DNA of 15,765 nt from a virus (taxonomy: Duplodnaviria > Heunggongvirae > Uroviricota > Caudoviricetes): positions 1-15,765 of IMG/VR virus record IMGVR_UViG_2571042870_000013. The stretch is one strand, 5' to 3'. The notes under the pieces were generated by a model. The model searched no databases. It was given only the letters and a program-made list of their open reading frames with translations, and had not been told where the DNA came from. The position numbers were made by a program, and so were the translations under genes. Shown in pieces: positions 41 through 15,765 of this stretch. The number at the start of each line of letters is the position of its first letter. The stretch's first letter is position 1.

Positions 41-3000
41 TCATTTTCCTAATTCTCCAGCTAAAAGTTCAGCCTGCTTCAAAACAGTCTCTGTGGCGAG
101 CAATGACATATCAGGCGGATAACCATATTTTTTGAGCAGACGTTTTACCACCACGCGAATTTTTGCTCTTGCTGCTTCTTTCACTGTCCAGTCAAGACTG
201 ACATTGTTGCGGATAGCCTCCGTAAGTACGACTGCCAGTTCTCGTAGTTTTTCCTTTTCCATTAACTCGCGAGCACTGTCGTTATCTGCAACAGCAGAAT
301 AGAAGGCATATTCATAAGCGCTGAGGTTTAACTGGCTGGCAAGGCTGTCAGATTCCTGGATAGTCTTGGCAAGCTTGATTAGCTCATCAATTACCTCCGC
401 TGCGGTCAGTACCTTGTTCTGGTAGCCATTGATTGCAGAGGTCAGCATATCAATCAGTTTTTTGCCTTGGGTGATACTTTGATTCGAGCGAACCTTGATC
501 TCGTCAGAAAGCAGTTTTTTAAGCGTTTCCAAAGCAATATTTCTGTGTTGGTAATCCTTCATTTCCTGAAGGAATTCTTCAGAAAGAACGGAAATATCAG
601 GTTTTTGTATCCCAGCAGCGTCAAAAATATCAACAACTTTATCGGTAACCAGAGCCTGATCGATAGTCTGTTTTACCCGAACTTCGAGACTGTCATTGTG
701 TTCTTCTTCTGATCCGTCTGAGTTTTCAGTAAATTTATTCAGTCTGGCTTTTACTGCCTGGAAGAATGCTACTTCGGGTGCCGCTTCCATTGCTTTATCG
801 TGCGGTGTCGCCAATGCAAATGCCTGCGATAAGGCTGCAACCGCAGCGAGGAAACGCATTTTACCTTTACCGTTATCCAGCCCTAAAATATGGTTTTCTG
901 ATTCAAGAATAATTGTCAGGCGTTGTGAGGTAGTTGCGGCAAAGTAAGCTTTGTAATCGTATCCATGCATCATGCCTTCCAGGATTTCCAGCTTTTCCTG
1001 CATGAGCGTTACGGCTTCTTCCTGAACCTCAGCAGGATCTCCACGTCCACCTGCATCAGAGTAAAAGGAGAGGGCTTCTTTTAAATCAGAGGCAATGCCC
1101 AGATAGTCAACAACCAGACCGCCTATCTTATCTTTATACACACGGTTCACACGGGCAATTGCCTGCATAAGGTTGTGGCCTTTCATTGGTTTGTCGATAT
1201 ACAGCGTATGCATGCTGGGAGCGTCGAAGCCGGTTAACCACATATCACGCACTATCACCAGTTTCAGCTTGTCGTCGTCATCCTTCATACGGTTAGCCAG
1301 AACCTGACGTTCTTTTTTTGTGGTGTGGTGTTTGGCAATTTCTGGCCCGTCAGCAGCAGAAGAGGTCATGACGACTTTTATTATACCGTCATTTAAATCA
1401 TCGCTGTGCCATTCAGGTTTTAAGGCTATGATTTCTTTATATAGTTCAGCAGCAATACGGCGGGACATGGTAACAATCATGCCCTTACCATGATCGGCAT
1501 TGGATTTTAAGCGCTGCTCAAAGTGCAGAACCATATCCGCCGCAATCGCTTTAATACGTTTTGAACTGCCAATCAAACCTTCGATTCTGGCCCATTTAGA
1601 ACGTTCTTTTTGCGTGAGCGTCAGTTCGTCCTCGTTAAACTCATCATCAAAGTCTTCAATAAGCTGACGACCTTCATCACTGATGGCAATTTTGGCAAGA
1701 CGGCTTTCATAAAAGATACGAACTGTTGCACCATCTTCAACGGCCTGCGAGATATCGTAGATATCAACATAGTTACCAAAAACAGCAGGCGTGTTGACGT
1801 CCGTTTTTTCTATGGGGGTTCCGGTAAAGCCGAGATAGGTCGCATTAGGTAAGGCATCACGCATATATTTGGCAAAGCCGTAAACGGTGCGTTTACCTGT
1901 TACGTTGCCTTCGCTGTCTTTCACGTCAACTTCTTTGGCGCTGAAACCGTACTGGGAACGGTGTGCTTCATCAGCGATAACGACAATATTGGTTCTGTCT
2001 GACAACAACTCATAGATATTGCTGCCATCATCAGGCTGGAATTTTTGAATAGTAGTAAACACCACACCGCCAGAGGCGACACGCAAATATTCTTTGAGTT
2101 CTTCCCGGTTGTTGGCCTGTTTTGGTGTCTGACGAAGTAGCTGGGTCGCGGAAGAGAACGTACCGAATAGCTGATCATCTAAGTCGTTACGGTCAGTAAT
2201 CACAACAACTGTCGGATTATCCAGCGCCAGCACAATTTTCCCGGTATAAAACACCATCGAAAGCGATTTACCGGAACCCTGAGTATGCCAGACTACGCCC
2301 GCTTTGCGATCTCCGGTTTTTTGCGCATTAACAAGATCTTTACTGTTACGTCCCTGCTGGCGCAGTGCCACTTCGGCAGAGGGGGAGTCCGCATTCACCG
2401 CTGAGGCACGAATAGTGGAAAGAACTGCTGCATTGACCGCGTAGTACTGGTGATAAGCCGCCATTTTTTTAACAGTACGGATACTGATAATCCCTTTGCT
2501 GTCTTCATGTTTGCTGGCCTCAAACACGATAAAGTGGCGGATTATATCCAGCAGCGTTACAGGATTAAGCAACCCCTGTAATAAAACTTCAAGCTGTGGT
2601 TGGGTACTGGTGGCTTGCGTTTTACCGTTAGCAGTTTTCCACGTCATATAACGACTGAAATCGGCAGAAACCGTCCCCGCTTTGGCTTCCAGCCCGTCAG
2701 ATATCACATTAAAAGCATTGTAGTTAAACAGACCGGGGATTTGGTTCTGATAGGTTTTAATCTGATTATAGGCACCTGTTACCGTTGCATTTTCGTCAGC
2801 GGCATTTTTAAGTTCGATAACGACTAATGGCAGGCCATTGATGAATAAAATAAGATCAGGTCGGCGGGTATGGTTGCCTTCTTTGATGGTGAGCTGATTA
2901 ATGACCAGAAATGCATTATTAGTGGGATCGTTAAAGTCGATCAGGCTGGCCAGTTCTCCTTGTGTATTACCATCCTTGCTGACTTCGATATTGATTCCTT

Positions 3001-3280
3001 CGGTCAAAAGGCGATGAAAGGTTAGATTGTTTGCCATTAGGTCAGGTGAGCTGATCTGCATCACCTGTTTTAGAGCTTCTTCACACTTCTGCTCACTAAG
3101 GTGCGGGTTAATTCGTTGCAATGCTGTACGCACTTTATCTTCAAGGATAACCTGCTGATAGCTACGTAACGGATTGATTCCACTGGGTTCAATGTCCGGG
3201 CCGTAAACATACTCATAGCCCAGCCCTTGCAGGTGCTCAATTGCCATTACTTCAATATCGGATTCGGTCATCTTTGCCAT
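41..3280 (-). CDS. hsdR: Type I restriction enzyme R subunit (endonuclease/translocase) HsdR
   Basis: 1079-aa ORF. N-terminal PD-(D/E)xK-like nuclease motif (PDLILFINGLPLVVIELK), helicase motif I (HTQGSGKS) and DEAH-type motif II (VVIADEAHRSQ), which is the hallmark architecture of HsdR. SD-like AAGGA about 10 nt upstream of the ATG at 3278-3280. Lies directly downstream of hsdM-hsdS on the same strand. Confidence 0.92.
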   Translation of the reverse strand: MAKMTESDIEVMAIEHLQGLGYEYVYGPDIEPSGINPLRSYQQVILEDKVRTALQRINPHLSEQKCEEALKQVMQISSPDLMANNLTFHRLLTEGINIEVSKDGNTQGELASLIDFNDPTNNAFLVINQLTIKEGNHTRRPDLILFINGLPLVVIELKNAADENATVTGAYNQIKTYQNQIPGLFNYNAFNVISDGLEAKAGTVSADFSRYMTWKTANGKTQATSTQPQLEVLLQGLLNPVTLLDIIRHFIVFEASKHEDSKGIISIRTVKKMAAYHQYYAVNAAVLSTIRASAVNADSPSAEVALRQQGRNSKDLVNAQKTGDRKAGVVWHTQGSGKSLSMVFYTGKIVLALDNPTVVVITDRNDLDDQLFGTFSSATQLLRQTPKQANNREELKEYLRVASGGVVFTTIQKFQPDDGSNIYELLSDRTNIVVIADEAHRSQYGFSAKEVDVKDSEGNVTGKRTVYGFAKYMRDALPNATYLGFTGTPIEKTDVNTPAVFGNYVDIYDISQAVEDGATVRIFYESRLAKIAISDEGRQLIEDFDDEFNEDELTLTQKERSKWARIEGLIGSSKRIKAIAADMVLHFEQRLKSNADHGKGMIVTMSRRIAAELYKEIIALKPEWHSDDLNDGIIKVVMTSSAADGPEIAKHHTTKKERQVLANRMKDDDDKLKLVIVRDMWLTGFDAPSMHTLYIDKPMKGHNLMQAIARVNRVYKDKIGGLVVDYLGIASDLKEALSFYSDAGGRGDPAEVQEEAVTLMQEKLEILEGMMHGYDYKAYFAATTSQRLTIILESENHILGLDNGKGKMRFLAAVAALSQAFALATPHDKAMEAAPEVAFFQAVKARLNKFTENSDGSEEEHNDSLEVRVKQTIDQALVTDKVVDIFDAAGIQKPDISVLSEEFLQEMKDYQHRNIALETLKKLLSDEIKVRSNQSITQGKKLIDMLTSAINGYQNKVLTAAEVIDELIKLAKTIQESDSLASQLNLSAYEYAFYSAVADNDSARELMEKEKLRELAVVLTEAIRNNVSLDWTVKEAARAKIRVVVKRLLKKYGYPPDMSLLATETVLKQAELLAGELGK

Positions 3281-3338
3281 GCGTACTGTCCTTATTGCCG
3301 CTTAACCAGAGAGCGGGCTGTACACCCGCATAATTATT

Positions 3339-4532
3339 TTATGCTACTGATGCGATTGCTTCTTCCGCATACTGAACCCGTACTTCGCCGCTCATCAGTT
3401 TGGGAAGGAGAGTGTCGCGCAGAGATTCTATGTTTTTAATTTGTGAGTTGTTAATACTTATTTTTTTCCAGAAGAAATCAATCTGTGTAGTGAATTCTTT
3501 CACCATACACTCCGGGGGGAGTTTGAATTCTGGGCGTTGTAATCCGTCAGCCGACAGCTGATTTACAGTTGAACCGTTAGTTGCAGCAACAACTTGCTCA
3601 TGCATATCTTTGGAGCAAAGTAAATAGTACAGAAAAGCATTGGTTAAGTAACTATCGTCATTGATGCTGATTTTAAATAAATGATGCGTATATATGGATA
3701 ATTCGCTTTCTGTTTTTGGAATTATAGCAGGATACCCTATGAGTCGATATTCATGGCCCTGTTCTGTATTGGCTACAATGATATCCCCAGGCTTTATAAT
3801 ATGCCTTTCTTTAAAATCACCATTGTAGTATTTTATACCTGCACTCTTATAACCACCGCCCTCAAGTACTGAGTTCAAACTAAAAAGTGGAATGCCGTTA
3901 TCTGACGTGGTAAGGCCGGCTCCCTTGTAGCTTAATCCCTTAGCTACTGTAATATGACAATCAAGAGTCGTTATTTCCCAATCCGCATGCGTCTCTTCAA
4001 TAAACCACTGTCTAAATAGGGTTTCTGCCATGGATTCCAGAGTTTTATTCTGGCGATGAAGCAGGTCTATTTTGTCTTTAAGAGAGGACAAAATAGAGGC
4101 GATGGCTTTTTGTTCAGATTCATCAATTGGTAAGTAAAGAGGAATCAAATTTAGCGATGCTTTATTTAATTTTGGTTGAGCAGCACCTGTTAAATAAGGA
4201 GATAGATCAAGTTGTGAAAAATATTGGATTATCAATGCCGTTAAATGGGGCTTTTTAGCTTTAAGGACATGAGCGTGATTATTAACCCAAAATTTTCCAG
4301 TAGCTTCAAATGCTATAGGTGTTTTTCTGGACTTTAAGTTTTCTCCATCTTCAGAAATAAGGATGTAGCTGCCATCAAAAATATAATTGTCGATATAATC
4401 GACAATTCCTGACGCTCCATAATATGGAAAATTTCCTTTCTTATGGGCTCGTTCCATAGCACTCAAAGGAATTCTTTGTGCGTTGCAAAAATCTGCTAAT
4501 TCAGTTATACAAAAATTTCTCCACCTACTCAT
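3339..4532 (-). CDS. hsdS: Type I R-M specificity subunit HsdS (two target-recognition domains with central and C-terminal conserved spacers)
   Basis: 397-aa ORF with bipartite HsdS layout: a variable N-terminal region, a central conserved helix ([13 protein letters not shown]), a second variable region, and a C-terminal conserved segment ([14 protein letters not shown]). Its start overlaps the hsdM stop by 4 nt (ATGA at 4529-4532), indicating translational coupling. Confidence 0.88.
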
Positions 4533-6076
4533 AAAACCACCTTCGCCAGATTATCAACGATGGCTCTGTTCAGACGCGCCTCTTCTTCCAGTTGCGCTTC
4601 AAACTCAGCTTTAAGAGCCGTAAAGCGTTCTTTAAAGTCGAAATCGTCTTCTTCATCAGCAAGACCAACATAACGGCCAGGTGTCAGCACATAATCGAGT
4701 TTAGCAACTTCAGCAATGTCTACTGACGCACAGAAACCAGCGACGTCTTCGTAGTCGCCACCTTTGTTACGCCAGTTATGATAGGTATCAGCGATGGTTT
4801 TTATATCGTCGTCAGAAAGTACTTTGGTACGACGATTAATTAAATGACCGAGATTACGGGCATCAATAAACAGAATTTCTTTACTACGATCACGATACTG
4901 GTTGCTGTTATGACGGTCACGGCGCATAAACCATAATGCAGCAGGGATCTGAGTATTCAGGAACAGCTTTGCCGGTAAGTTGACGATACAGTCAATCACA
5001 TTGGCATCTTTTACCAGTGCAGCACGAATATCACCTTCACCAGAGCTTTTAGAAGTTAATGCCCCTTTTGCCAGAACAACACCCGCTTGCCCTTTAGGAG
5101 ACAAGTGATACAAAAAATGTTGCATCCATGCAAAGTTAGCGTTGCCAGCAGGTGGAATGCCATATTGCCAGCGGGCATCACCACGAAGCTGCTCACCAGA
5201 CCAGTCGGAAACGTTAAACGGTGGGTTAGCTATGATAAAATCAGATTTCAAATCTTTGTGAGCATCGTTAAGAAATGAACCTTCATTATTCCAGCGAACG
5301 TGTTCAGAATTAATCCCACGAATTGCCAGGTTCATTTTTGCCAGACGCCAAGTGGTCTGGTTGGACTCCTGCCCATAGATCGAAATATCGTCAATATTTC
5401 CCTGATGTGCTTCTACAAATTTTTCTGACTGAACGAACATACCACCAGAACCACAGCAGGGATCAAAGACACGGCCTTTATAGGGTTCCAGCATGTTAAC
5501 CAGCAGGCTTACAATAGATTTTGGCGTATAGAACTGGCCGCCTTGTTTGCCTTCTGCCAGTGCAAATTCACCTAGGAAGTATTCGAATACGTGACCTAAA
5601 ACGTCAGCAGAGCGTGCTTTGGCATCTCCTAGTGCAATGTTGCCAATCAGATCTATCAGCTCACCCAGAACAGTGGCGTCGAGGTTTTGTCGGGCATAGA
5701 CTTTCGGCAACACACCTTTTAACTGTGGATTGCCCGCTTCGATAAGCTCCATCGCATCATCAACCATCTTACCGATTTCAGGAAGCTTGGCCTTAGAAAT
5801 CAGATAGTTCCAACGTGCAAGCTCAGGGACAAAGAAAACGTTGTAAGCGGTGTACTCGTCTTTGTCTTCCGGATCAGCACCTGCGAACTCGCCTTTACCG
5901 GCTTTCAGCAACTCATAATGAGATTCAAAAGAATCAGAAATGTACTTAAGGAAAATGAGGCCTAGTACGACGTGCTTGTACTCGGCTGCATCAATGTTTT
6001 TACGCAGTTTGTCTGCCGCTTTCCACAGGATGACCTCTAACGGGTCTGTTTTGATTTCTTTAGGTTTTCTGGCCAT
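4529..6076 (-). CDS. hsdM: Type I R-M N6-adenine DNA methyltransferase subunit HsdM
   Basis: 515-aa ORF with a SAM-binding motif I ([12 protein letters not shown]) and catalytic motif IV NPPF ([12 protein letters not shown]), typical of gamma-class N6-adenine methyltransferases of Type I systems. First gene of the M-S-R operon. Confidence 0.92.
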
Positions 6077-6224
6077 TAGCGTAACCTTATGAAGGGGGAA
6101 GATGGCCCTATTTTGCCTTAAAGTTCCGCTTGTTACGAGCTTATACAGCGATTAATTATTATCTGGTTTTAGTGTGTTCGTGTAGCTCAGCAAGTGCAAT
6201 GACTCATGGAGTAAATGCTTTGTA

Positions 6225-6557
6225 GCGGGATTGTAGATGTCAGGTCATTGCCGTCAATGGAGCCAGTGTCATTGGCATAATTGCTGCACAGCCGATGCCA
6301 CGCGCACATTCGCTAGTTCACTGTGGTTCATCGTGTGTACTACACCAGTACGCAGTCCGGGAAGTAACGGCATGGCAGAATCGTTTGTAAAGACGTTCAA
6401 GCGGGATTATGTGTACGTAGATGATCTGCTGGATGCAGTCTAAATGATGGAAACAATGGCAGAATAGATAGAGGATTATAATAATCTGCATCCACACAAG
6501 GGGTTGAACATGAAATCGCCACGCGAATATCGTGATGCCATATTAGCAGTTAATTAG
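6225..6557 (+). pseudogene. Remnant of a DDE (rve/integrase-core type) IS transposase C-terminus, interrupted by two in-frame stop codons
   Basis: A single reading frame gives ...TPVRSPGSNGMAESFVKTFKRDYVY...DLLDAV(stop 6441-6443)...MAE(stop 6465-6467)IEDYNNLHPHKGLNMKSPREYRDAILAVN(stop 6555-6557). The SPxxNGxxESF...LK and YNxxRPH...SP.EY-like motifs are the conserved C-terminal signature of IS3-like DDE transposases. The N-terminal catalytic part is missing and the frame is broken. Confidence 0.6.
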
Positions 6558-6997
6558 CCGTGTCCGTTTTAGCAGGGACAACTCCAGTATTCAAAAAAGC
6601 TTTCTTAGTGCATATGCATGAGGTGAATAGATGTACAGGCTATGACAAACCATAGTTGTAATTTTTAATGTTTAAAATTCTCCGTTACAGTAGGACATTC
6701 CTTGTACATTAAATTCCATCTAAGGTTGAATTTTTAATTTAATAAGGTCGCAATCTAAAATGATGTGTATGGGGTTATTTGTAAGATGATTTTTTATTTT
6801 TGATAGTGGTGATTAAGGGAGCGGGTAATGTTTGTCTATTCAAAAATATAGAGATTCAAGGTTGGTAGCAGTTTGGCTTCTTTTATAACCGAAGGGCAGA
6901 AAAGCAAGGGGAACTCGAAGAAGCAAGCGCAGCGGCTTCGCAGAGTTAGCCCTTGCTTCTCTTATAATTGGCATTATTCATTCAAGAACAATAGGAT

Positions 6998-7017
6998 CTT
7001 CGCTTGTACAAGCGAAG
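6998..7017. repeat. Perfect 20-bp palindrome CTTCGCTTGTACAAGCGAAG
   Basis: Read directly from the sequence: arms of 9 bp around a central TA, with perfect dyad symmetry. Lies in the gene-free spacer downstream of the ParB-like operon. Confidence 0.9.
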
Positions 7018-7672
7018 CTATAATAAAAACAATCAATTAATAATTTTAAAAGTATTAAACAAGAACCTATTGACATTCATAAAATACAAGTTATTTATAA
7101 TGTATGCCATAAATAAAAAGTTTTATGTCATATGTATCCTGCACTATGTGCAGTTAATGTACCACTTGTCCCATAGATGGGAATATTGGAAAGGTTACTT
7201 TGTTTTGAAGTAGCCTTTCGTCCTTCAATATTAACGATTACTTATTGCTATTACCAAGTCCAGTCGAATCGAAGAACATCTTTTATCTGAAACGACTCCT
7301 AATACCCGGTTAAAGCCACAATATCTCTCGCATACGTAGACCAAAGAAAAATTATGATATTAACTATGTGATTTTTTTTAGTGTTAAGTTGAATAATTAA
7401 ATACTGGAGAGTTTTCTGTGCACTACCAATTGCTGGTTCATCTGTTCTGCCGCTGATGTTTCTGACGAATCTCCCGGTGACACAGAACTGTCCCTCTCTA
7501 CCAGCCTTTATTCGACTCAATGTCCGGCTGCTGATACGCAGTTATCCCTTCGTATCAATGACTGACACTTAAACGTAATGCTTTGGTTGCTGGCGTATCT
7601 GACAGCTTCTTCGGCGTGAAGGTCGTTGTGTAAGTATACTTCTTGGTTTATTTAGGCTATATAAAACCATGA

Positions 7673-8569
7673 CTATGACTTGCTGTTTTCAGTAAGAGTC
7701 TTATCATCCAAAGAATTTATTCTAGAAATTCTTTTTAACTCATTAAGATAATCAACCTCGTTTTCTAAGAACCAATGAAGAACTTTAGAATTGCCAAGTA
7801 ATTTATTAATATATGACTGGATTATAACGAATTTCAACATATCTGAACCATACTCGGTTTGAAGCTTTTTCGTTTCTTCCGAAGTTGTTGCCATTTCTTG
7901 TTCCAGACGAAGTATGGTTTTTTTTATGTCCTTTTTATAGGGAGTGTTTTTCCCTTTATTTACTATCATCGATGCCGGTGTTGCATCCAAGATGCTCATT
8001 GCAAATTTTTTACTATAATTATCAAAATTAATCATTGTACCGACTGCTTCAATTTGGCGAATTGGCTTCATTTTCCTCAAAACGTCAAATGTAGCCTTAG
8101 GTATAGGTTTATCAGAAAGTTTCGCAATTACACTTGGATCTATGCCGTTCATCACATTCGCTTTATCTTTTATGGCATCAACAGATATGCCCAAAGCAGC
8201 ACTAAGTTTTTCAATTGATACTTTTGCCAGAGACTTAATTATCATTCTATGTTCTTCAACTACATTTATATGATTCACTTGTTTGTTAGGAGTGAAAGCA
8301 TCATCTATGCTCGAAAGTATACATGGAGCTTTTTCTATACCTAAGTCTTTTAAAGCCTCAACCCTTAAATGGCCATCAAGTATCTTAGTGACATCTTTAT
8401 CTTTGTCATAGAATACTATTATTGGTTCAATAATACCTAAGCTTTCGATAGAGGTAACTATTTGATGATATTTATGGCTTCGCTTTACGTTTTCTAATAA
8501 TTCCTTAGATGGAATTAACTTATTAGTTTCCAGGTAAATAAAATTATCGCCAAAACGTATCTGAATCAT
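7673..8569 (-). CDS. Divergent ParB/Srx-fold protein (ParB-like partner 2), function unknown
   Basis: 298-aa ORF. N-terminal region resembles the ParB N-domain (IEPIIVFYDKD...ILDGHLRVEALKDLGIEKAPCIL) with a DGxxR-type box, followed by an HTH-like segment (SIEKLSAALGISVDAIKD). It lacks the arginine-rich ENxxRR box present in the upstream paralogue. Its start overlaps the upstream gene's stop (ATGA at 8566-8569). Confidence 0.6.
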   Translation of the reverse strand: MIQIRFGDNFIYLETNKLIPSKELLENVKRSHKYHQIVTSIESLGIIEPIIVFYDKDKDVTKILDGHLRVEALKDLGIEKAPCILSSIDDAFTPNKQVNHINVVEEHRMIIKSLAKVSIEKLSAALGISVDAIKDKANVMNGIDPSVIAKLSDKPIPKATFDVLRKMKPIRQIEAVGTMINFDNYSKKFAMSILDATPASMIVNKGKNTPYKKDIKKTILRLEQEMATTSEETKKLQTEYGSDMLKFVIIQSYINKLLGNSKVLHWFLENEVDYLNELKRISRINSLDDKTLTENSKS

Positions 8570-9462
8570 TTTAATACCTCTTTGTTTACTGGGGTTAATA
8601 TCTGAGATGGTAGTTCTGAAAGATTCTCTTGTTCAAGTATATGTTGAAAGCTTTTATTCATCATTATGATGTTAAAAATCTCATTTACTATTAGTAGGTT
8701 GGTTTTTATGAATTTTGAGTTGTTATAAACAGATTTATGTTCAGCGATACTATTTTCATAAAGCTCAATCAACTCCTCTGCAGTCATCCTTTTTGATGGT
8801 TTGTGATAATAAAATCCGGCTGCTTTTGCACCTTTATTCCCAACTGTTCTTTGATTTAGAATGTGTTTTATCTTTATAATGTCCCGACTTTTTATTAATT
8901 TTTTATCATATGCTTCGGTAAGAATATCTTGTGCTTCCTCAGTTTCACATCTTGCAAATTGCACTGCGAGATACAGAGGCAAATTACCCCGTTCGACTGC
9001 TGAGAGAAGTTTATGCTCTCCCTTATCAAGTAGCATATTAATACTGCTCACCCAGTTCGATGAATATCCAGTAATCTCACTTATTTCGGAGTCTGAAAGT
9101 CCTCTGATTTTCATGTCTTTAATCACCTGTAATAACTCATTAGAACGTGGTCTTCTCCTTGCAATGTTTTCAACTAAACTCATAACGTAAGCATCTTCTT
9201 CTGATACATCTCTTATAATTGCTGGAATAATAGTTTCACCTAATGCAACGAGAGCCTCTATTCTCCCTTGACCACAAATTAAAGCATATTTGAAATCGCC
9301 TTCATCAATAGCTCTTACGCTTATTGGCTTGCTTAATCCTCTTTTTTTTATGCTTTCCTTTATTTCTTCATGCACTACCTTATTTCTTGTTCGTGGGTTA
9401 AGAAATTTTATTTTTGCAATCTCAATTTGAATTATTGGGAATTCATTTTTTTCAGGCAGCAT
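8566..9462 (-). CDS. ParB/Spo0J/KorB-like DNA-binding protein with HTH (ParB-like partner 1)
   Basis: 298-aa ORF. Colinear with ParB-family N-domains: NPRTR, PISVR, GQGRIEALVALGETIIPAIIRDVSEEDA, then the arginine box LVENIARRRP, then an HTH (GLSDSEISEITGYSSNWVSSINMLL). Its start overlaps the end of the serine recombinase gene by 11 nt (9452-9462). Confidence 0.72.
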   Translation of the reverse strand: MLPEKNEFPIIQIEIAKIKFLNPRTRNKVVHEEIKESIKKRGLSKPISVRAIDEGDFKYALICGQGRIEALVALGETIIPAIIRDVSEEDAYVMSLVENIARRRPRSNELLQVIKDMKIRGLSDSEISEITGYSSNWVSSINMLLDKGEHKLLSAVERGNLPLYLAVQFARCETEEAQDILTEAYDKKLIKSRDIIKIKHILNQRTVGNKGAKAAGFYYHKPSKRMTAEELIELYENSIAEHKSVYNNSKFIKTNLLIVNEIFNIIMMNKSFQHILEQENLSELPSQILTPVNKEVLK

Positions 9463-11008
9463 ATAGTTCCCTCACTTTCATGCGAGTAATAATTTGTAGA
9501 AGTTTATCAAGATTATCAAATCTATAGAGATCTAATCGAATGTTGTTTGTTTCCGTCATGCACATTTTATTATATTCGTTTTCAATCTTTGGTATGATAT
9601 AAAAATCAAGAGGTGAAATATTTTGTGAATTCATTCGTATAACAATTGTTATGTCTGCTTTCTGTGAGTTATCAAACCGGACTTTCCATCTAAGTTTACC
9701 TGATTTCATATGTATGCATTTAGTAACAAGGACGGAAATTAAAAACTCATCATTGATGTAAAGCATTGGGGCATATTTATACTCGTCTATATGACAGTTA
9801 CTTTTTAAAATTTCACCCTTAAAATCCTCAATTATCTCTGAGTAAAATGATCTTAGTGCTTCATTTATTTTGAGATAGCTGTAATCATGTTCTGGCTTAT
9901 AACCAATCAAAGTATATGCTCTTAAAAGACCACCAAATCGGGTTCTATAAACAGAAGATGAAGGGCCTGTATCATCTTCATCAATGATAAAGCCTGATAG
10001 TTTTCCATTAGATTCTAATTTTTGTTTTAGTTTTTCTAATAGATCTTCATTAGTCAAATGAATGGATCGGAGCTGAATTATTTCTTGAGCTTTATTGTAT
10101 TTTTTCTTTGAAATAATAGGTTTATATGCCTTGTCACATCTAACCCATTCATGTTTGGGGTTTTTTACAAGCCTACTTTTTAATTTAGATGAGGTTTTGT
10201 TATATATGTTGTTTCCAATATATTTTTCATTTGTCAAAATTTGATGTATTTTTGCACGAGTCCATAATGTTCCATTTTCTGCAGGTATGTTCTGTTCATT
10301 TAATCTCTCAGCAATAATGAATTCTGGGACGTTATTATCTATAAAGAGATCATATATTCTATTTACAATTTTTATTTCATTTTTTGGTCCCGGAATTAAT
10401 ATTACCCTATCTGTTTGAATACTCTTTCTTTTGCGGAAACTCAATATTTCTTTAGCTATGCCATTTTCGTCTACTAAAAGACGTCTCAGCCCATAACCAG
10501 CCATACCGCCTTGATGATAACCAAGCTTTATTAAATTTACTTGCCCTATAAATACCTTTTCAGATAGATTCCTGCTGTGATATGCAGCACTAGATCTTTT
10601 TATATTCAGTATAACAGAGGACTCTAAAGGGAAATCTTTAGTGGGTATAGGTTCGGAACAATATATAAGATCTACACCATTTCTCTCAAATAGAAAGGAA
10701 TAATATGCCGCTTCATCACTATTTTGAAAACGACCAAAACGGCTCACATCATAAAATAATACAGCCTGTATATCTATTTTCTTTTGTTCTACATCGCTAA
10801 GTAACTGCTGCAAAGAATGCCTGCCTACGATACTGACTCCGCTCTTACCTGCATCATCGTAGGTATAAGCGATTTCCATATTGTTCTTTTCAGCATAATC
10901 TTTGATATATTCGGACTGATTATGTAAAGAATATTGCTGATGGTCGGTAGACATCCTCAAGTACTGCGCGACCCTAACTCTATGATTTTTGTCATTTTCG
11001 CTAGCCAT
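9452..11008 (-). CDS. Large serine recombinase (resolvase/invertase catalytic domain plus recombinase domain plus long C-terminal extension)
   Basis: 518-aa ORF. N-terminal catalytic motif YLRMSTDHQ (putative nucleophile Ser20), DDAGKSG, and VLFYDVSRFGR; a recombinase-domain segment (GYHQGGMAGYGLRR...LWTRAKIHQILTNEKYIGNNIY); and about 230 further residues typical of large serine recombinases. SD-like GAGG precedes the ATG at 11006-11008. Confidence 0.88.
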   Translation of the reverse strand: MASENDKNHRVRVAQYLRMSTDHQQYSLHNQSEYIKDYAEKNNMEIAYTYDDAGKSGVSIVGRHSLQQLLSDVEQKKIDIQAVLFYDVSRFGRFQNSDEAAYYSFLFERNGVDLIYCSEPIPTKDFPLESSVILNIKRSSAAYHSRNLSEKVFIGQVNLIKLGYHQGGMAGYGLRRLLVDENGIAKEILSFRKRKSIQTDRVILIPGPKNEIKIVNRIYDLFIDNNVPEFIIAERLNEQNIPAENGTLWTRAKIHQILTNEKYIGNNIYNKTSSKLKSRLVKNPKHEWVRCDKAYKPIISKKKYNKAQEIIQLRSIHLTNEDLLEKLKQKLESNGKLSGFIIDEDDTGPSSSVYRTRFGGLLRAYTLIGYKPEHDYSYLKINEALRSFYSEIIEDFKGEILKSNCHIDEYKYAPMLYINDEFLISVLVTKCIHMKSGKLRWKVRFDNSQKADITIVIRMNSQNISPLDFYIIPKIENEYNKMCMTETNNIRLDLYRFDNLDKLLQIITRMKVRELYAA

Positions 11009-11178
11009 GCACGAAACCTCATGGATGATTCAATACAATGTAGTGGATAAAATTGATCAAATTTCAACCGAATTCAACTGTTTTATCATTGATTAGAGCG
11101 AATTTGGTAGATCTTCGAGGTGTATGATAATCGAGAAGAGATGTGAATTATTTAGCTGATATGACCGACAGCTTTCGT

Positions 11179-11228
11179 TATGTGGACTCAATGTCCCCAT
11201 TTGTAAATGGCTATGCTTAGTCCACATA
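11179..11228. repeat. Nested inverted repeat: 10-bp arms (TATGTGGACT / AGTCCACATA) enclosing an inner palindrome CCATTT-GT-AAATGG
   Basis: Read directly from the sequence in the intergenic region between the P4-type integrase stop (11291) and the serine recombinase start (11008). Outer arms at 11179-11188 and 11219-11228; inner dyad at 11197-11210. Confidence 0.8.
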
Positions 11229-11290
11229 GGTTAATGGTGTGATTATTAATTCTTTAACTAAATCAAGATAGTTAATCCATCATGGGAGAG

Positions 11291-12520
11291 TTATGCGGCA
11301 ATAACTTTGCATTTTTGAGACGAAACATAGTCACTCCACCATTGCATGAGAACCACCCGTTCAGTGAGATACTCTGCACGATTGTAGGCTGCAATTATTT
11401 CATCTTTCTTCGAGTGGGCAAGGGCGGCTTCTAAGACATCAGTCCTAAACTTGCCAGACTCCTCAGCAGCCGTTCTAGCAATGGATCGCATACCGTGAGC
11501 TACAAGCTCACCTCCGAAACCCATACGGATTATGGCCGCATTAGCTGTTTGTTCATGCATGTGATTGAGTGGAGCTTTGATACTGGGGAACACCCACTCT
11601 CTATGCCCGCTGATGACTTTCATTAAATCCAAAACTCGCAAAGCTTCTTTGCTCAGTGGAACTTTGTGAGGCTTCTTCATTTTCATAAACTCCGCCGGGA
11701 TGTTCCACATGCCAGTTTCAATATCAATATCTGACCATCTTGTGCGAACAGCTTCACCTGGGCGAACCCATGTGAGAAGTTGCCACTCAATCAGTAGCCT
11801 TGTTTCCAAACGGATAGAAGCATTGTTTAGAGCAACCAAGAAGCGAGGGAGTTCGGAAGGGGGTAATGCTGGCATATTCTGTTTTTTTGGCTTGCTGAAC
11901 CGTTGCCCCAGGTTGTCTGCCGGGTTGAATTCTATGAGTTCTTCTGTTGCTGCATAGCGGAAAATTTCATTCAGGCGGGATATGATGCGGCGAAGTGTTT
12001 CAAGGACACCTCGTTTTTCTATGGGTTCTAAATGCTGTTTAAGCATTTTAGGGCGAATCTCCTTAATTGGGGTATCACCCAATGTGGAAAAGATATTTCT
12101 CTCTAGGCTTCGCCAGATGTCGTTAGCATGATCTTGGGAGATGCCTGACGTTTTGACTTTCTCATCAAGCCACTTCTTGGCTACTGCTTGAAATGTATGT
12201 TCCGTGGCATCTTTCAGTGCATTGGCTTTTTGGTTGTTATGAACTTGGGGGTCTATACCATTTGTAAGCAACGACAAGTATTCATCACGTAAAGCTCGTG
12301 CCTTCGCAAGTGTAAGGTGAGGATAGGTTCCTAAGCTCACCTTAGTTCGCTTTTTGGTCACAGGCACTGCATATCTGAAATACCAATTTTTCTTCCCTCC
12401 CTTCGCCAGGGGAGCGATTCGCAACAGCAAACCATCGCCGTCAAAAAGGTCAACCTCTTTTTCGGCAGGTTTGGTGCTTTTGATTTCAGTGTCAGTGAGC
12501 TTCTTAGCGATTTTGGCCAT
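11291..12520 (-). CDS. int: P4-type tyrosine integrase (CP4-57 IntA-like); true start taken as the ATG at 12518-12520 rather than the upstream GTG at 12601
   Basis: N-terminus MAKIAKKLTDTEIKSTKPAEKEVDLFDGDGLLLRI...WYFRY matches the characteristic N-terminus of P4-family integrases. C-terminal catalytic region has HGMRS (HxxR) and AAYNRAEY (catalytic Tyr). It is adjacent to a copy of the ssrA 3' end, the classic target of this family. Confidence 0.9.
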   Translation of the reverse strand: MAKIAKKLTDTEIKSTKPAEKEVDLFDGDGLLLRIAPLAKGGKKNWYFRYAVPVTKKRTKVSLGTYPHLTLAKARALRDEYLSLLTNGIDPQVHNNQKANALKDATEHTFQAVAKKWLDEKVKTSGISQDHANDIWRSLERNIFSTLGDTPIKEIRPKMLKQHLEPIEKRGVLETLRRIISRLNEIFRYAATEELIEFNPADNLGQRFSKPKKQNMPALPPSELPRFLVALNNASIRLETRLLIEWQLLTWVRPGEAVRTRWSDIDIETGMWNIPAEFMKMKKPHKVPLSKEALRVLDLMKVISGHREWVFPSIKAPLNHMHEQTANAAIIRMGFGGELVAHGMRSIARTAAEESGKFRTDVLEAALAHSKKDEIIAAYNRAEYLTERVVLMQWWSDYVSSQKCKVIAA

Positions 12521-12618
12521 GTTTGGGACCCTCGATTTTAGGACCCATCTTCGTGGGTCCCATTCAGGGTGCCATAACTCGTAGTTCTCAGCAATTCTCA
12601 CTAGACTACAATAGACGT

Positions 12619-12650
12619 AAAAAAGCCCGCAGAGCTTGTGCTGTGCGGGC
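12619..12650 (-). terminator. Rho-independent terminator (minus strand) between the att core and the integrase
   Basis: On the minus strand the sequence reads GCCCGCACAGCACAAGCTCTGCGGGC followed by TTTTTT: a GC-rich stem of about 7 bp with a loop, then a T-run. Confidence 0.55.
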
Positions 12651-12686
12651 TTAGTAGACTTTACTGAACTTCAGTACATCAATATT

Positions 12687-12731
12687 TGGTGGAGCTGGCG
12701 GGAGTTGAACCCGCGTCCGAAATTCCTACAT
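12687..12731 (-). repeat. ssrA: 45-nt copy of the 3' end of the tmRNA gene ssrA (attachment-site core / direct repeat); not a full ssrA gene
   Basis: The minus strand reads ATGTAGGAATTTCGGACGCGGGTTCAACTCCCGCCAGCTCCACCA, which matches the 3' terminus (T-arm, acceptor stem, CCA) of enterobacterial tmRNA as I recall it. Identity stops after these 45 nt; the adjacent sequence at 12732 onward has no resemblance to the ssrA body. Confidence 0.85.
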
Positions 12732-12846
12732 ACCATTTTCACTATAACAAAAACATTAACTTGCGTTTAAAATCATCAAGTTAGTATTATCTTATGTTTG
12801 TCCGTTTTACTCATTTTTAATGCTCTGTCGCCAATCTGTCGCCACA

Positions 12847-13497
12847 TTATCCGCTGCTTGAGTTGAAATCTGTGGGTTTACGGAGATTAGATCTTATGGT
12901 TTTTTCAGCGATACGAATAGTCGAAAATTTATGCAGGTTCATCAGTGCTATACAAATCCCAAGTGCAAAAAAGTAGCTGGACATTCCTAATCTTTGCATA
13001 TCAGTAAGTTTATTAATTTTCTCTAAAATATGTTGGGTTACTAATCCTTCGTATACAAAAGGTATGGAAGTTATAAAACCGCCAATAAAATAGAATGTTA
13101 AGCTTATCAGCTTTATAGATTTTCTATATATCCAAAAGCGATATCTTTTTTTTGTCCATTTAAATATTTGTTTTTCACTACTAATAGAAATTAGTTTTTG
13201 ACACTTGCTATAGTTATCAATGTCATTAACTGGATCGTTAACACCTAAAAGAATCTCTCTCTGTTCTGGAGTTAGGTTCTTATCTTTTGTTATTGCAGCA
13301 ATACCATAATTATATGCAACTTTCTTGATTTTGGGATCTTCAGTATTCTTATATAGATTGTATGCAAACTCGCTAATGTTTTTGCGCGAGTTGAAAATCT
13401 TATCTTTGGGGAAAACCCAGCCGGATCTTACCGCGAGCATCTGTATGATCGGGGTAATTATCGCGACAGAATACTTAATTATCTCGTTTATGTTCAT
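12847..13497 (-). CDS. Hypothetical small membrane protein (accessory 'moron'-like gene) immediately downstream of the prophage integrase
   Basis: 216-aa ORF, AT-rich relative to the neighbouring int and cI genes. Hydrophobic segments (LISLTFYFIGGFITSIPFVY, MSSYFFALGICIALMNL) suggest 2-3 transmembrane helices. Its start is only 14 nt downstream of the int stop on the same strand, so it is probably co-transcribed with cI-int. No family recognised. Confidence 0.55.
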   Translation of the reverse strand: MNINEIIKYSVAIITPIIQMLAVRSGWVFPKDKIFNSRKNISEFAYNLYKNTEDPKIKKVAYNYGIAAITKDKNLTPEQREILLGVNDPVNDIDNYSKCQKLISISSEKQIFKWTKKRYRFWIYRKSIKLISLTFYFIGGFITSIPFVYEGLVTQHILEKINKLTDMQRLGMSSYFFALGICIALMNLHKFSTIRIAEKTIRSNLRKPTDFNSSSG

Positions 13498-13511
13498 GAT
13501 CCATTGTTTAC

Positions 13512-14528
13512 TTAAATTAAGTTATAAAGAGGGTTTTTTGTTACTGCATCCTCCAGGTGGTCTGGAGAGAAGTGTGCATAAATCATCGTCATTTTAATAT
13601 CTGAGTGCCCTAAAATATCACGTAAAACGAGTATGTTCCCACCGTTCATCATAAAATGGCTGGCAAATGTATGGCGCAGGACGTGGGTGCATTGGCCTTC
13701 CGGTAGTTCAATACCGGCCCGTTTTACCGCCCGTTCAAAGGCTTTTCTGCATGGTGTGAATAATTTCCCTCGGTTTTTGGGTAGCTCGTTGTACAGATCC
13801 TGAGATATCGGTACGGTACGGTTTTTTTTACCCTTGGTCTTTGTATAGGTAATCCGGTATTTCGATAGTTGATGGCCCTGCAGGTTTTCAGCTTCACTCC
13901 AACGAGCACCGGTTGCTAGGCATATTTTTGCAATCATTAGCAGACTGGGGCTTTGAGAATCAGCACAGGCATCCAGCAGACGTTTAATTTCCTCCGGGGT
14001 TAGGAACGCCAGTTCACCCTCCGTAATTTTAAATGTTGGAAGCCCGGCAAGCGGGTTGGGGGCTGACCAGTGGCCCAGCTTTTTCAGTGTACCAAAAACA
14101 GATGATAGGTTGCGCTGTTCAAGGTTTACCGTGCGGGGCTTAACGGGTGACATGAACGAGCCGTCTTCATTTTGGACCTCCCCCTTTAATCTGGCTTCCC
14201 GATATTTTGTGAAATCACCTGCTGTCAGCTCAGAGGCGATGGGATCGCCTAGACCATTACAGATAATTCTAAGTTTCGCCATCAGGCGTTTGGGGTCTGC
14301 GAGTGTTTGACCATATAGGGAATACCACTGCTCAATCACTTCTGATAATCGCCGCCGATCTTCCTTCTCACCAAGCCATGGCTTTTTGTTTACTTCGTTC
14401 ATGGTGAAGTTTTCGAATGCTATGGCTTCGCCTTTCGTGGCAAATTGCTTACGCACGCGCTTGCCATTGCGTCCATTGGGATAGCACTCACACAACCATT
14501 TTCCGTTCGGCTGTTTTCTGATGGTCAT
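13512..14528 (-). CDS. int: P2/186-type phage integrase (tyrosine recombinase)
   Basis: 338-aa ORF. N-terminus (NGKW...RNGKRVRKQF...EAIAFE) and C-terminal catalytic region (HVLRHTFASHFMMNGGNILVLRDILGHSDIKMTMIYAHF) closely parallel P2 Int as recalled (ATHALRHSFATHFMINGGSIITLQRILGH...MVYAHF). Sits directly downstream of a CI-like gene, as in P2/186. Confidence 0.9.
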   Translation of the reverse strand: MTIRKQPNGKWLCECYPNGRNGKRVRKQFATKGEAIAFENFTMNEVNKKPWLGEKEDRRRLSEVIEQWYSLYGQTLADPKRLMAKLRIICNGLGDPIASELTAGDFTKYREARLKGEVQNEDGSFMSPVKPRTVNLEQRNLSSVFGTLKKLGHWSAPNPLAGLPTFKITEGELAFLTPEEIKRLLDACADSQSPSLLMIAKICLATGARWSEAENLQGHQLSKYRITYTKTKGKKNRTVPISQDLYNELPKNRGKLFTPCRKAFERAVKRAGIELPEGQCTHVLRHTFASHFMMNGGNILVLRDILGHSDIKMTMIYAHFSPDHLEDAVTKNPLYNLI

Positions 14529-14529
14529 A

Positions 14530-15162
14530 TCAAAGGCTCTTAATGATTTTCAGTGCACGGCCTACTACCTCAATGTCATCCAGGCCACACTCAAACGATG
14601 AATCATCCTGATGCACTACTAATCTGTTTCCCGGGAGTCGAGTCAATTTAACAATGCTTTTTATCCCGTCGATATCGACTAACCACATACCATTCACTGG
14701 TGGTGTTTGGTTGCGATCTATTAAATAAGAATCACCAGAAGTAGTCACCAGCAGTAGGTTGCTTGAGTCTGAGGGGAGTATGCTGCTATCAATGATTGCT
14801 TTTCCAGCATCGACCAATAAACCACCGTTGAGAGTCGCCTTGTCAATTTCAGGAGATACTAGTTCAGAAAGAGGTACAACCTTGCTGGAGTTCACGGAAT
14901 TGATATTTTTTTTAGGTTCAATGTTTGGACCTGGCTCCCCCTGTCCGGTGGTTAGCCACAGTAAAGAAACTCCTGTTTCCAAGGCGCACTGAATCACCCA
15001 CTCTGCAGGAAAACTATCTCTTAAGTATCTGTTTGCCATGGTGCTTTTTGATGCGCCTAAGTGATCGCAAAGTTGCTGTCTGGACTTGAAATCATAGGCT
15101 GCCATTAGTCTATGGATAGCTTCTCTTCCCCCTGTATTCTCTCCAGCCTTTACCTGTATCAT
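14530..15162 (-). CDS. cI: Phage 186-type CI immunity repressor
   Basis: 210-aa ORF with CALETGVSLLWLTTGQGE and GMWLVDIDGIKSIVKLTRLPGNRL...FECGLDDIEVVGRA, closely matching conserved blocks of coliphage 186 CI as recalled. Transcribed divergently from the Cox/Apl-like and CII-like genes. Confidence 0.85.
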   Translation of the reverse strand: MIQVKAGENTGGREAIHRLMAAYDFKSRQQLCDHLGASKSTMANRYLRDSFPAEWVIQCALETGVSLLWLTTGQGEPGPNIEPKKNINSVNSSKVVPLSELVSPEIDKATLNGGLLVDAGKAIIDSSILPSDSSNLLLVTTSGDSYLIDRNQTPPVNGMWLVDIDGIKSIVKLTRLPGNRLVVHQDDSSFECGLDDIEVVGRALKIIKSL

Positions 15163-15281
15163 TTTTTAATCCTGTTGACGTATCAAATATTGGATCGTAG
15201 TATCTCGATGTATCAAATATTGAATCAATTAAAACGAGATAAAACGACGTAAACCAAACCTTAATCGGGAGATACTGCACT
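15163..15281. promoter_or_regulatory. Prophage lysis/lysogeny switch region: candidate rightward sigma70 promoter (TTGACG 15175-15180, 17-nt spacer, TAGTAT 15198-15203) and two near-identical 17-bp operator-like repeats (15180-15196 and 15210-15226)
   Basis: Read from the sequence. GTATCAAATATTGGATC and GTATCAAATATTGAATC are each internally near-palindromic (ATCAAAT/ATTgGAT) and lie 30 bp apart, between divergent cI and cox/apl-like genes. The first repeat overlaps the candidate promoter spacer. Confidence 0.5.
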
Positions 15282-15524
15282 ATGAGCACTGATATTTCAA
15301 TTCGTGTACCAAAAGAGATGGCTACGCCTGCAGAGTTCGCGGAATGGGAAGGTATCTCCCGCGGCTCCGTGTATCAAAAAATTCACCATGGTCAGCTTGC
15401 TAAATACATGGTCAAGAAAGAAAAAAATAAAGGCCGCGTAAACCTTCGTTATCTGATGTACAAAACTGATCAGGTCCGTGAATCCCTCGGTCATTCCAAC
15501 TTCCGCGTCATTGTTGGTAAGTAA
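15282..15524 (+). CDS. Cox/Apl-family small HTH protein (excisionase / early-lytic repressor candidate)
   Basis: 80-aa ORF in the position of cox/apl (between cI and cII, divergent from cI). The segment ATPAEFAEWEGISRGSVYQKIHHGQL parallels the HTH of P2 Cox as recalled (AIPYQEFAKLIGKSTGAVRRMIDKGKL). GGGAG SD-like sequence upstream. Confidence 0.6.
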   Translation: MSTDISIRVPKEMATPAEFAEWEGISRGSVYQKIHHGQLAKYMVKKEKNKGRVNLRYLMYKTDQVRESLGHSNFRVIVGK

Positions 15525-15555: not shown

Positions 15556-15765
15556 CATGTTTGATTACAAGATTTCCAAACATCCGCATTTCGATGAAGC
15601 CTGTAGGGCTTTTGCACTGCGTCACAACCTGGTGCAACTGGCAGAACGTGCAGGCATGAATGTACAGATTCTGCGGAACAAGCTGAACCCAGCTCAGCCT
15701 CATTTATTAACCGCACCAGAAATCTGGCTGCTTACCGATCTGACTGAAGATTCAACGCTGGTAGA
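15556..15765 (+). CDS. cII: Phage 186 CII-like regulator, 3'-truncated by the window end
   Basis: ATG at 15556 is preceded by an AAGGGG SD. Translation [69 protein letters not shown] closely matches the N-terminus of coliphage 186 CII as recalled. It has no stop within the window, which is why it is absent from the supplied ORF track. Confidence 0.8.

Follow-up and report, generated by a model that had tools for sequence, protein, structure and literature searches.

The open reading frame at 12847-13497 (minus strand) of the window, as we call the whole 15,765-nt stretch of DNA that was analysed, is a real and well-conserved gene coding for a small inner-membrane protein. It is horizontally acquired cargo and comes last, furthest from the promoter, in the cI-int lysogenic operon of a prophage. 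The host element is an ssrA-integrated 186/Fels-2-like prophage, and the gene is functional and under strong purifying selection. On balance we lean towards some anti-phage role for the cargo gene, and our preferred form of that role, offered tentatively, is that of a single-gene abortive-infection protein which would sense its cue in the cytoplasm. The finding is one of uncharacterised prophage cargo within a known hotspot, and it represents a familiar kind of system rather than a new one.

Coordinates, composition and start codon

The cargo gene is described here from the list of open reading frames, a profile match to PHROG 21256, hydropathy and an AlphaFold2 (AF2) model. It opens with ATG, encodes 216 aa and is located on the minus strand together with cI (14530-15162) and int (13512-14528). 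The stop codon of int occupies 13512-13514, and a spacer of 14 nt (13498-13511, minus strand), holding a weak GGA Shine-Dalgarno sequence and no terminator-like site, separates it from the cargo gene. An earlier note on this DNA had placed the frame 14 nt past the int stop on the same strand, as is seen here. The same note had called the frame far richer in AT than its neighbours, and the G+C contents agree with this (33.0% for the cargo gene, 47.2% for int and 44.4% for cI).

The RefSeq/PGAP product of the gene, WP_231253729.1, has a length of 197 aa and begins at an internal methionine of the cargo gene, M20. A start at M20 would delete the N-terminal hydrophobic helix, and because this helix is conserved in every homologue the 216-aa start is preferred. 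The M20 annotation issue touches 13441-13497 of the window, and likewise L001 14236-14829 and L002 8160-8753.

The lysogenic operon and its prophage

The first gene of the operon encodes a 186-type CI repressor with Phage_CI_repr and Phage_CI_C domains (14530-15162, minus strand), and the second a tyrosine integrase of 338 aa (13512-14528, minus strand) that is 54% identical to the Int of phage 186. Upstream of cI, the cI-apl interval (15163-15281) is the lytic/lysogenic switch region, in which the layout of phage 186 suggests face-to-face pR and pL promoters. A pR-like hexamer pair was found within it at 15175-15203 on the plus strand. The interval is followed on the plus strand by an 80-aa apl/cox-like excisionase-repressor gene (15282-15524; phrog_6912, phrog_575) and by the 5' part of a cII-like gene (15558-15765), which continues past the end of the window and is annotated Phage_CP76/CII in homologous loci.

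On the other side of the cargo gene, the region from the att core to the cargo stop codon (12732-12846) makes up the P' arm of the attachment site and is identical in E. coli strains LR-33 and SCU-172. The core, or else a duplicated target, is a 45-nt identical match to the 3' end of ssrA, the tmRNA gene (12687-12731, minus strand). Searches of the window with tRNA/tmRNA and Rfam scans found no complete tmRNA, only this 45-nt 3' fragment. Past the fragment lies a G+C-rich hairpin with a T-run (12623-12657, minus strand), which reads as the intrinsic terminator of ssrA. Between cI, int and the cargo gene a consensus scan gave no terminator-like site, and the hairpin is the first such site ahead of any cI-int-cargo transcript in a lysogen. 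By position, and by analogy with phage 186, the cargo gene should thus be made together with the repressor in lysogens. A transcript from pL would carry cI, int and, as its third gene, the cargo, and it would probably stop past attR, at the terminator of ssrA.

Fels-2 and SopE-phi, for both of which ssrA is a known integration site (PMC3448106), are the sequenced phages whose int region comes closest. Within E. coli SCU-172 the cI-int-cargo genes form the end part of a complete P2/186-like prophage, the opposite end of which adjoins an intact ssrA. Strain LR-33 retains only a remnant of the prophage, consisting of ssrA, a cII fragment, apl, cI, int and the cargo gene.

The SCU-172 prophage also carries a TIR-domain gene in its GpA-portal hotspot and, in the interval from ogr to attL, a gene of the ParA family, and its neighbour is a P4-like satellite with a NACHT-domain gene (together L001 24967-25569, L001 3680-13891 and L044 8271-9347). 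The ssrA site of this strain is a dense pile of candidate defence cargo. Most of the remainder of the window (41-12601) belongs to a second integrative island adjoining the ssrA 3' fragment, which is AT-rich, with 28-38% GC around 10000-11200. This island has a P4-type tyrosine integrase (11291-12601, minus strand), a large serine recombinase (9452-11008, minus strand), two adjacent ParB/RepB-like genes of 298 aa each (8566-9462 and 7673-8569, minus strand) and a complete type I restriction-modification system (hsdM 4529-6076, hsdS 3339-4532, hsdR 41-3280). No open reading frame above about 73 aa is present in the roughly 1.6 kb that separate hsdM from the ParB-like genes (6077-7672).

Direct repeats downstream of the cargo gene

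Two copies of TCTGTCGCCA are located directly past the cargo stop codon, at 12824-12833 and 12835-12844 on the plus strand. The earlier note had described a tandem repeat at 12825-12844 and had raised the possibility of integrase arm-type sites. The repeat is real, but it covers 12824-12844 and is not strictly tandem, since a single A separates the copies and gives a period of 11 nt. The suggestion of arm-type sites fared better. The word TGTCGCCA occurs three times in the window, where 0.31 occurrences would be expected, and the two copies past the cargo stop each fit the Int consensus of phage 186 (YAYCGCCAYTY) at 9 of 11 positions, with the same place and orientation as the sites of that phage. 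A pair with the 11-nt period is kept in L003, L017 and L022 behind alleles that share only about 50-80% identity with the window protein, as it is in L013, where the allele is identical. At the other end of the prophage in SCU-172 a second pair, TGTCGCCA/TGCCGCCA, adjoins ssrA. Because of the consensus fit, the 186-like placement, the conservation behind divergent alleles and the second pair, the reading of 12824-12844 as predicted Int arm-type sites of the P' arm is well supported.

The slot between int and the attachment site

The curated record of phage 186 gives a lysogenic operon from pL that consists of cI, int and Orf69, with Orf69 starting 14 nt after int. Past Orf69 come two Int arm-type sites, then Apl and IHF sites and the attP core. 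The int-att slot that Orf69 fills in phage 186 is empty in SEN8, and in Cartapus and RE2010 it holds a 401-aa protein that begins 9 nt after int and is annotated as a RES-domain protein in Cartapus (L045 1669-2874) and as 'unknown' in RE2010. Two further loci, L018 and L034, carry in the slot unrelated membrane proteins of 387 aa (L018 3139-4302) and 328 aa (L034 3336-4322). A PADLOC match was found neither for these two membrane proteins nor for the 401-aa RES-annotated protein. Comparison with related P2/186-like phages, which the earlier note had proposed, thus finds the gene present, replaced or absent at this position: the slot is conserved and its content is not. The earlier proposal of a later-acquired moron holds as well, given the low GC of the gene, its location inside the prophage between int and the arm sites and att core, and its varying presence among relatives.

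About 20 IMG/VR and genome loci have cI, int and a gene of this family in that order on one strand. Their Int proteins are 87-94% identical to that of the window, whereas the cargo products are only about 52% identical, also where the identity of Int reaches 93-94%, and synonymous sites are saturated between the alleles. Similar integrases beside such divergent cargo products, together with the saturation, point to old alleles that have been exchanged by recombination. Past the gene in L018, a Klebsiella-type locus, there is a glycine-rich hydrophobic open reading frame of 61 aa (L018 5680-5865; GAGIAGAAAGGAMAG...) that looks like a small bacteriocin or microcin-like peptide. It is overlapped by a 186-aa open reading frame on the same strand in a different frame.

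The gene is rare among complete E. coli genomes, 2 of 5426 of which carry it. In E. coli and Salmonella the exact protein is encoded on 613 contigs, a Cronobacter form is 82% identical and Klebsiella forms are 52-64% identical. A profile scan of genome contigs with the close alignment returned one locus, and hardly anything was gained when the word-indexed homologue search was run again with the broad alignment. When the query and one distant member were searched with tblastn against 50,697 phage records (INPHARED), no match was obtained. As no cultured phage in that collection has a family member, no lysogen phenotype is on record.

Nearly all prophage copies of the gene are tightly linked to cI or int, which would be expected if the gene served the phage itself by modulating lysogeny or induction, by maintaining the prophage through addiction or by timing lysis. 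We regard such a role as improbable, however. Most close relatives do without the gene, as in SEN8 with its empty slot and 186 with its unrelated Orf69; the gene is located outside the lysis cassette; and, as described below, one family member sits at the other hotspot of a P2-like genome while others belong to non-phage elements.

Protein family and predicted architecture

The earlier note had found no recognisable family for the protein. This stands for Pfam, NCBIfam and PADLOC-DB v2, none of which gave the query a family (0 PADLOC matches), but it does not stand for PHROG 21256, whose profile is matched over the full length (E=2.7e-69; residues 5-207 of 216 against profile positions 7-209 of 222). 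The function of that PHROG family is unassigned, and membership in it adds no mechanism. A match to EF-G-binding_N (E=0.031, below the cut-off) was dismissed as chance, and sequence profile matches in the PDB to designed helical proteins and GPCR helices were read as artefacts of composition. Literature searches found no paper mentioning the protein.

When 1.84 billion representatives were searched exhaustively with a profile at E<=0.001, a family of 92 proteins was obtained, counted as 50%-identity representatives. Most are 196-250 aa in length and align over most of that length, and they come from Enterobacteriaceae, Orbaceae, Burkholderia and unassigned metagenomic contigs. Searching 76 members against Pfam gave nothing meaningful, with the SLATT models unmatched at E<=0.01, and the same 76 against PADLOC gave three isolated matches, one member each, the best at E=0.0012.

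Three hydrophobic segments were located with a Kyte-Doolittle scan using a 19-residue window (approximately aa 5-24, 127-149 and 170-190), in keeping with the two to three transmembrane helices of the earlier prediction. The AF2 model, built from an alignment of 76 sequences, has a pLDDT of 92.7 and a pTM of 0.80. It consists of a helix at 3-52, in which TM1 runs on into the cytoplasm, a helical domain with a beta-hairpin at 55-114, and helices at 122-152 (TM2), 155-162 (short) and 166-203 (TM3 with a basic extension). When the model was compared with PDB folds no informative match was found. The predicted layout is accordingly TM1 at aa 5-24, a cytoplasmic helical domain at 25-126, a TM2-loop-TM3 hairpin at 127-190 and a basic C-terminal helix. 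Under the positive-inside rule the N terminus is predicted to lie outside, segment 25-126 (20 K/R) inside, the loop at 150-169 outside and the C terminus (6 K/R) inside, so that K/R-rich segments are found on both sides of the TM hairpin. Conservation peaks in the predicted cytoplasmic domain, at 1.93 bits per column over residues 53-100, and is lowest in the predicted periplasmic loop, at 0.6 bits. The core motif of the cytoplasmic domain is E-x-G-Y-A-A-L-x-G-D-x-x-L-x-x-x-Q-R-x-x-L-L.

This architecture bears on the idea that the protein acts by superinfection exclusion. T4 Imm, P22 SieA and HK97 gp15 are small inner-membrane proteins by which a resident phage excludes others, and in their manner the cargo product would block the entry of incoming phage DNA at the inner membrane and leave the cell unharmed. 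The lysogenic operon of a prophage is the typical setting for a small inner-membrane protein of this kind, and the allelic diversity of the cargo gene beside a conserved int would suit such a role. The predicted periplasmic parts are tiny and the least conserved, however, the conserved domain being predicted to be cytoplasmic, and an entry block specific to phages fits less well with members that lie outside prophages in generic defence islands. The likeness to Imm, SieA and gp15 is one of description, and we judge superinfection exclusion unlikely.

Selection and persistence after prophage decay

Comparison of the window allele with that of L017 gives a dN/dS of 0.075, and comparison of L018 with L003 gives 0.10; the gene is functional and under strong purifying selection. 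AT-rich genes can be silenced in E. coli, and the low GC of the cargo gene and its presence in so few complete E. coli genomes might suggest a silenced or non-functional AT-rich remnant with no current role. A dN/dS of about 0.08-0.10 excludes a dead gene for practical purposes. The frame is moreover intact, with the same length and architecture across the approximately 92 representatives, and the co-evolution signal gave a confident AF2 fold, all of which makes the remnant reading exceedingly improbable.

The gene also outlives the prophages that carry it. It is retained in the LR-33 remnant described above; in L034 it stands behind what is left of int, a stub of the 3' end, with a similar arrangement in L018; and a Buttiauxella fragment has it too. 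Within K. quasipneumoniae a solitary copy is found on more than 1000 contigs, where it lies among metabolic genes and its GC has risen to 45%. Orbaceae bacterium ESL0727 likewise has a solitary homologue, 38% identical, between housekeeping genes and some 280 nt past the 3' side of the tmRNA gene (L036 5356-6645). This copy appears to be all that is left of an element once integrated at ssrA.

Survival of this kind would be expected if the gene brought about a lysogenic conversion unrelated to phages, that is, a change in the host envelope or physiology (stress tolerance, a transport-associated function or colonisation) kept for its benefit to the bacterium. The fixed and ameliorated chromosomal copy in K. 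quasipneumoniae, the orphan copy in Orbaceae and the persistence in LR-33 all agree with it. We nevertheless consider it somewhat unlikely: Pfam searches of the query and the 76 members found no enzymatic, transporter or adhesin domains, little of the protein is predicted to be exposed outside the cytoplasm, and several distant homologues lie inside defence loci. The virulence determinant that the earlier note had offered as an alternative gained no support.

Distant homologues and their neighbourhoods

Some distant members of the family remain in phage settings. In 186-like elements a 33%-identical form follows directly after a 280-aa CI, without an intervening int, and a member of cluster P0039, about 31% identical to the window protein, is located between the replication gene GpA and ogr/portal of a P2-like phage. 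The GpA-portal interval of P2-like phages is a classical hotspot of defence genes, that of tin/old (PMC9122126, PMC9519451, PMC13586616), and the int-att interval of these phages, where the cargo gene of the window lies, has been described as a minor defence hotspot (PMC13586616).

Other members were found elsewhere. That of Burkholderia ubonensis comes after a cluster of a C5-methylase, a DUF2357/PDDEXK_7 nuclease and Vsr, a restriction-type island. Another adjoins a Shedu SduA_C nuclease, with integrases and a Tn3 transposase around it, and yet another is divergent from a BrxR regulator and adjoins RosmerTA on a Tn7-like element. Defence links were thus seen at four of the six distant loci, a small sample without statistical control. 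These defence-type neighbourhoods are suggestive and support a defence or exclusion reading circumstantially.

The Tn7-like element just mentioned (L042 6001-12609; TniQ, AAA_22) carries RosmerTA, BrxR and the family member together. Three large proteins, of 519 aa, 275 aa and at least 1196 aa, start 19 nt past the family member, and Pfam and PADLOC searches gave no match for any of them. At this locus the membrane protein may be part of a system of several genes that has not yet been described.

Comparison with known systems and possible function

The nearest positional equivalent of the cargo gene is Orf69 of phage 186, which is not homologous to it. Both genes begin 14 nt after the int stop on the same strand and are followed by two Int arm-type sites and attP. 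Orf69, unlike the cargo product, is 83 aa in length and has no hydrophobic helices, and homology between the two was rejected (BLASTP E=42).

The nearest functional analogy is with rexAB of lambda. These genes place a defence function in the cI (pRM) operon, so that it is made in lysogens, and RexB, which crosses the inner membrane several times, acts as an effector of abortive infection. Homology to RexB was rejected (hhalign probability 0.4%). RexB has four TM helices, while the cargo product has three and its gene stands alone, with no RexA-like partner gene found in any prophage locus examined.

Like tin/old of P2 and other GpA-portal cargo, the cargo gene is variable, low-GC cargo of P2-like prophages, and one member of its family is located at that very position. 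It differs from the catalogued hotspot systems in that the family has no homology to any of them in PADLOC. The SLATT domains offer a further comparison. They consist of a helical hairpin of two TM segments with flanking cytoplasmic helices and have been proposed as membrane-perturbing effectors of conflict systems. The cargo product also has a helical TM hairpin with flanking cytoplasmic helices, but its gene, unlike SLATT systems, has no associated nucleotide-signalling gene.

Within an anti-phage role, the abortive type is favoured because the conserved surface is predicted to face the cytoplasm and because relatives lie in generic defence islands of distant taxa. To judge from the architecture, the conserved cytoplasmic domain (aa 25-126) may sense a cue of infection, upon which the bundle of TM1, TM2 and TM3 would oligomerise or rearrange and compromise the membrane, and the resulting damage would stop the superinfecting phage. 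Counting against a defence role are the negative PADLOC, Pfam and NCBIfam searches, the uninformative fold comparison, the small number of distant loci, the orphan copy among metabolic genes and the chance that an AT-rich gene is silenced in E. coli. Carried to the whole family, this abortive-infection model would make it a new family of single-gene membrane-anchored anti-phage systems, with a novel cytoplasmic sensing domain fused to a three-helix effector, spreading via repressor operons, P2 hotspots and transposon cargo. We put this forward as a possibility that falls short of probable.

Significance

The setting of the cargo gene would not surprise a specialist. Should defence prove not to be its role, the fact that decayed prophages and the core genome of K. 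quasipneumoniae keep the gene would still point to a membrane function of benefit to the host. If lysogens are protected, it would add a small defence family that needs one gene only and whose fold is not represented in the PDB, and it would be a concrete case of the int-att defence hotspot that was recently proposed for P2-like phages. Being made with the repressor, such a defence would be on in every lysogen, and it would bear on the prediction of host range for phage therapy in E. coli, Salmonella and Klebsiella.
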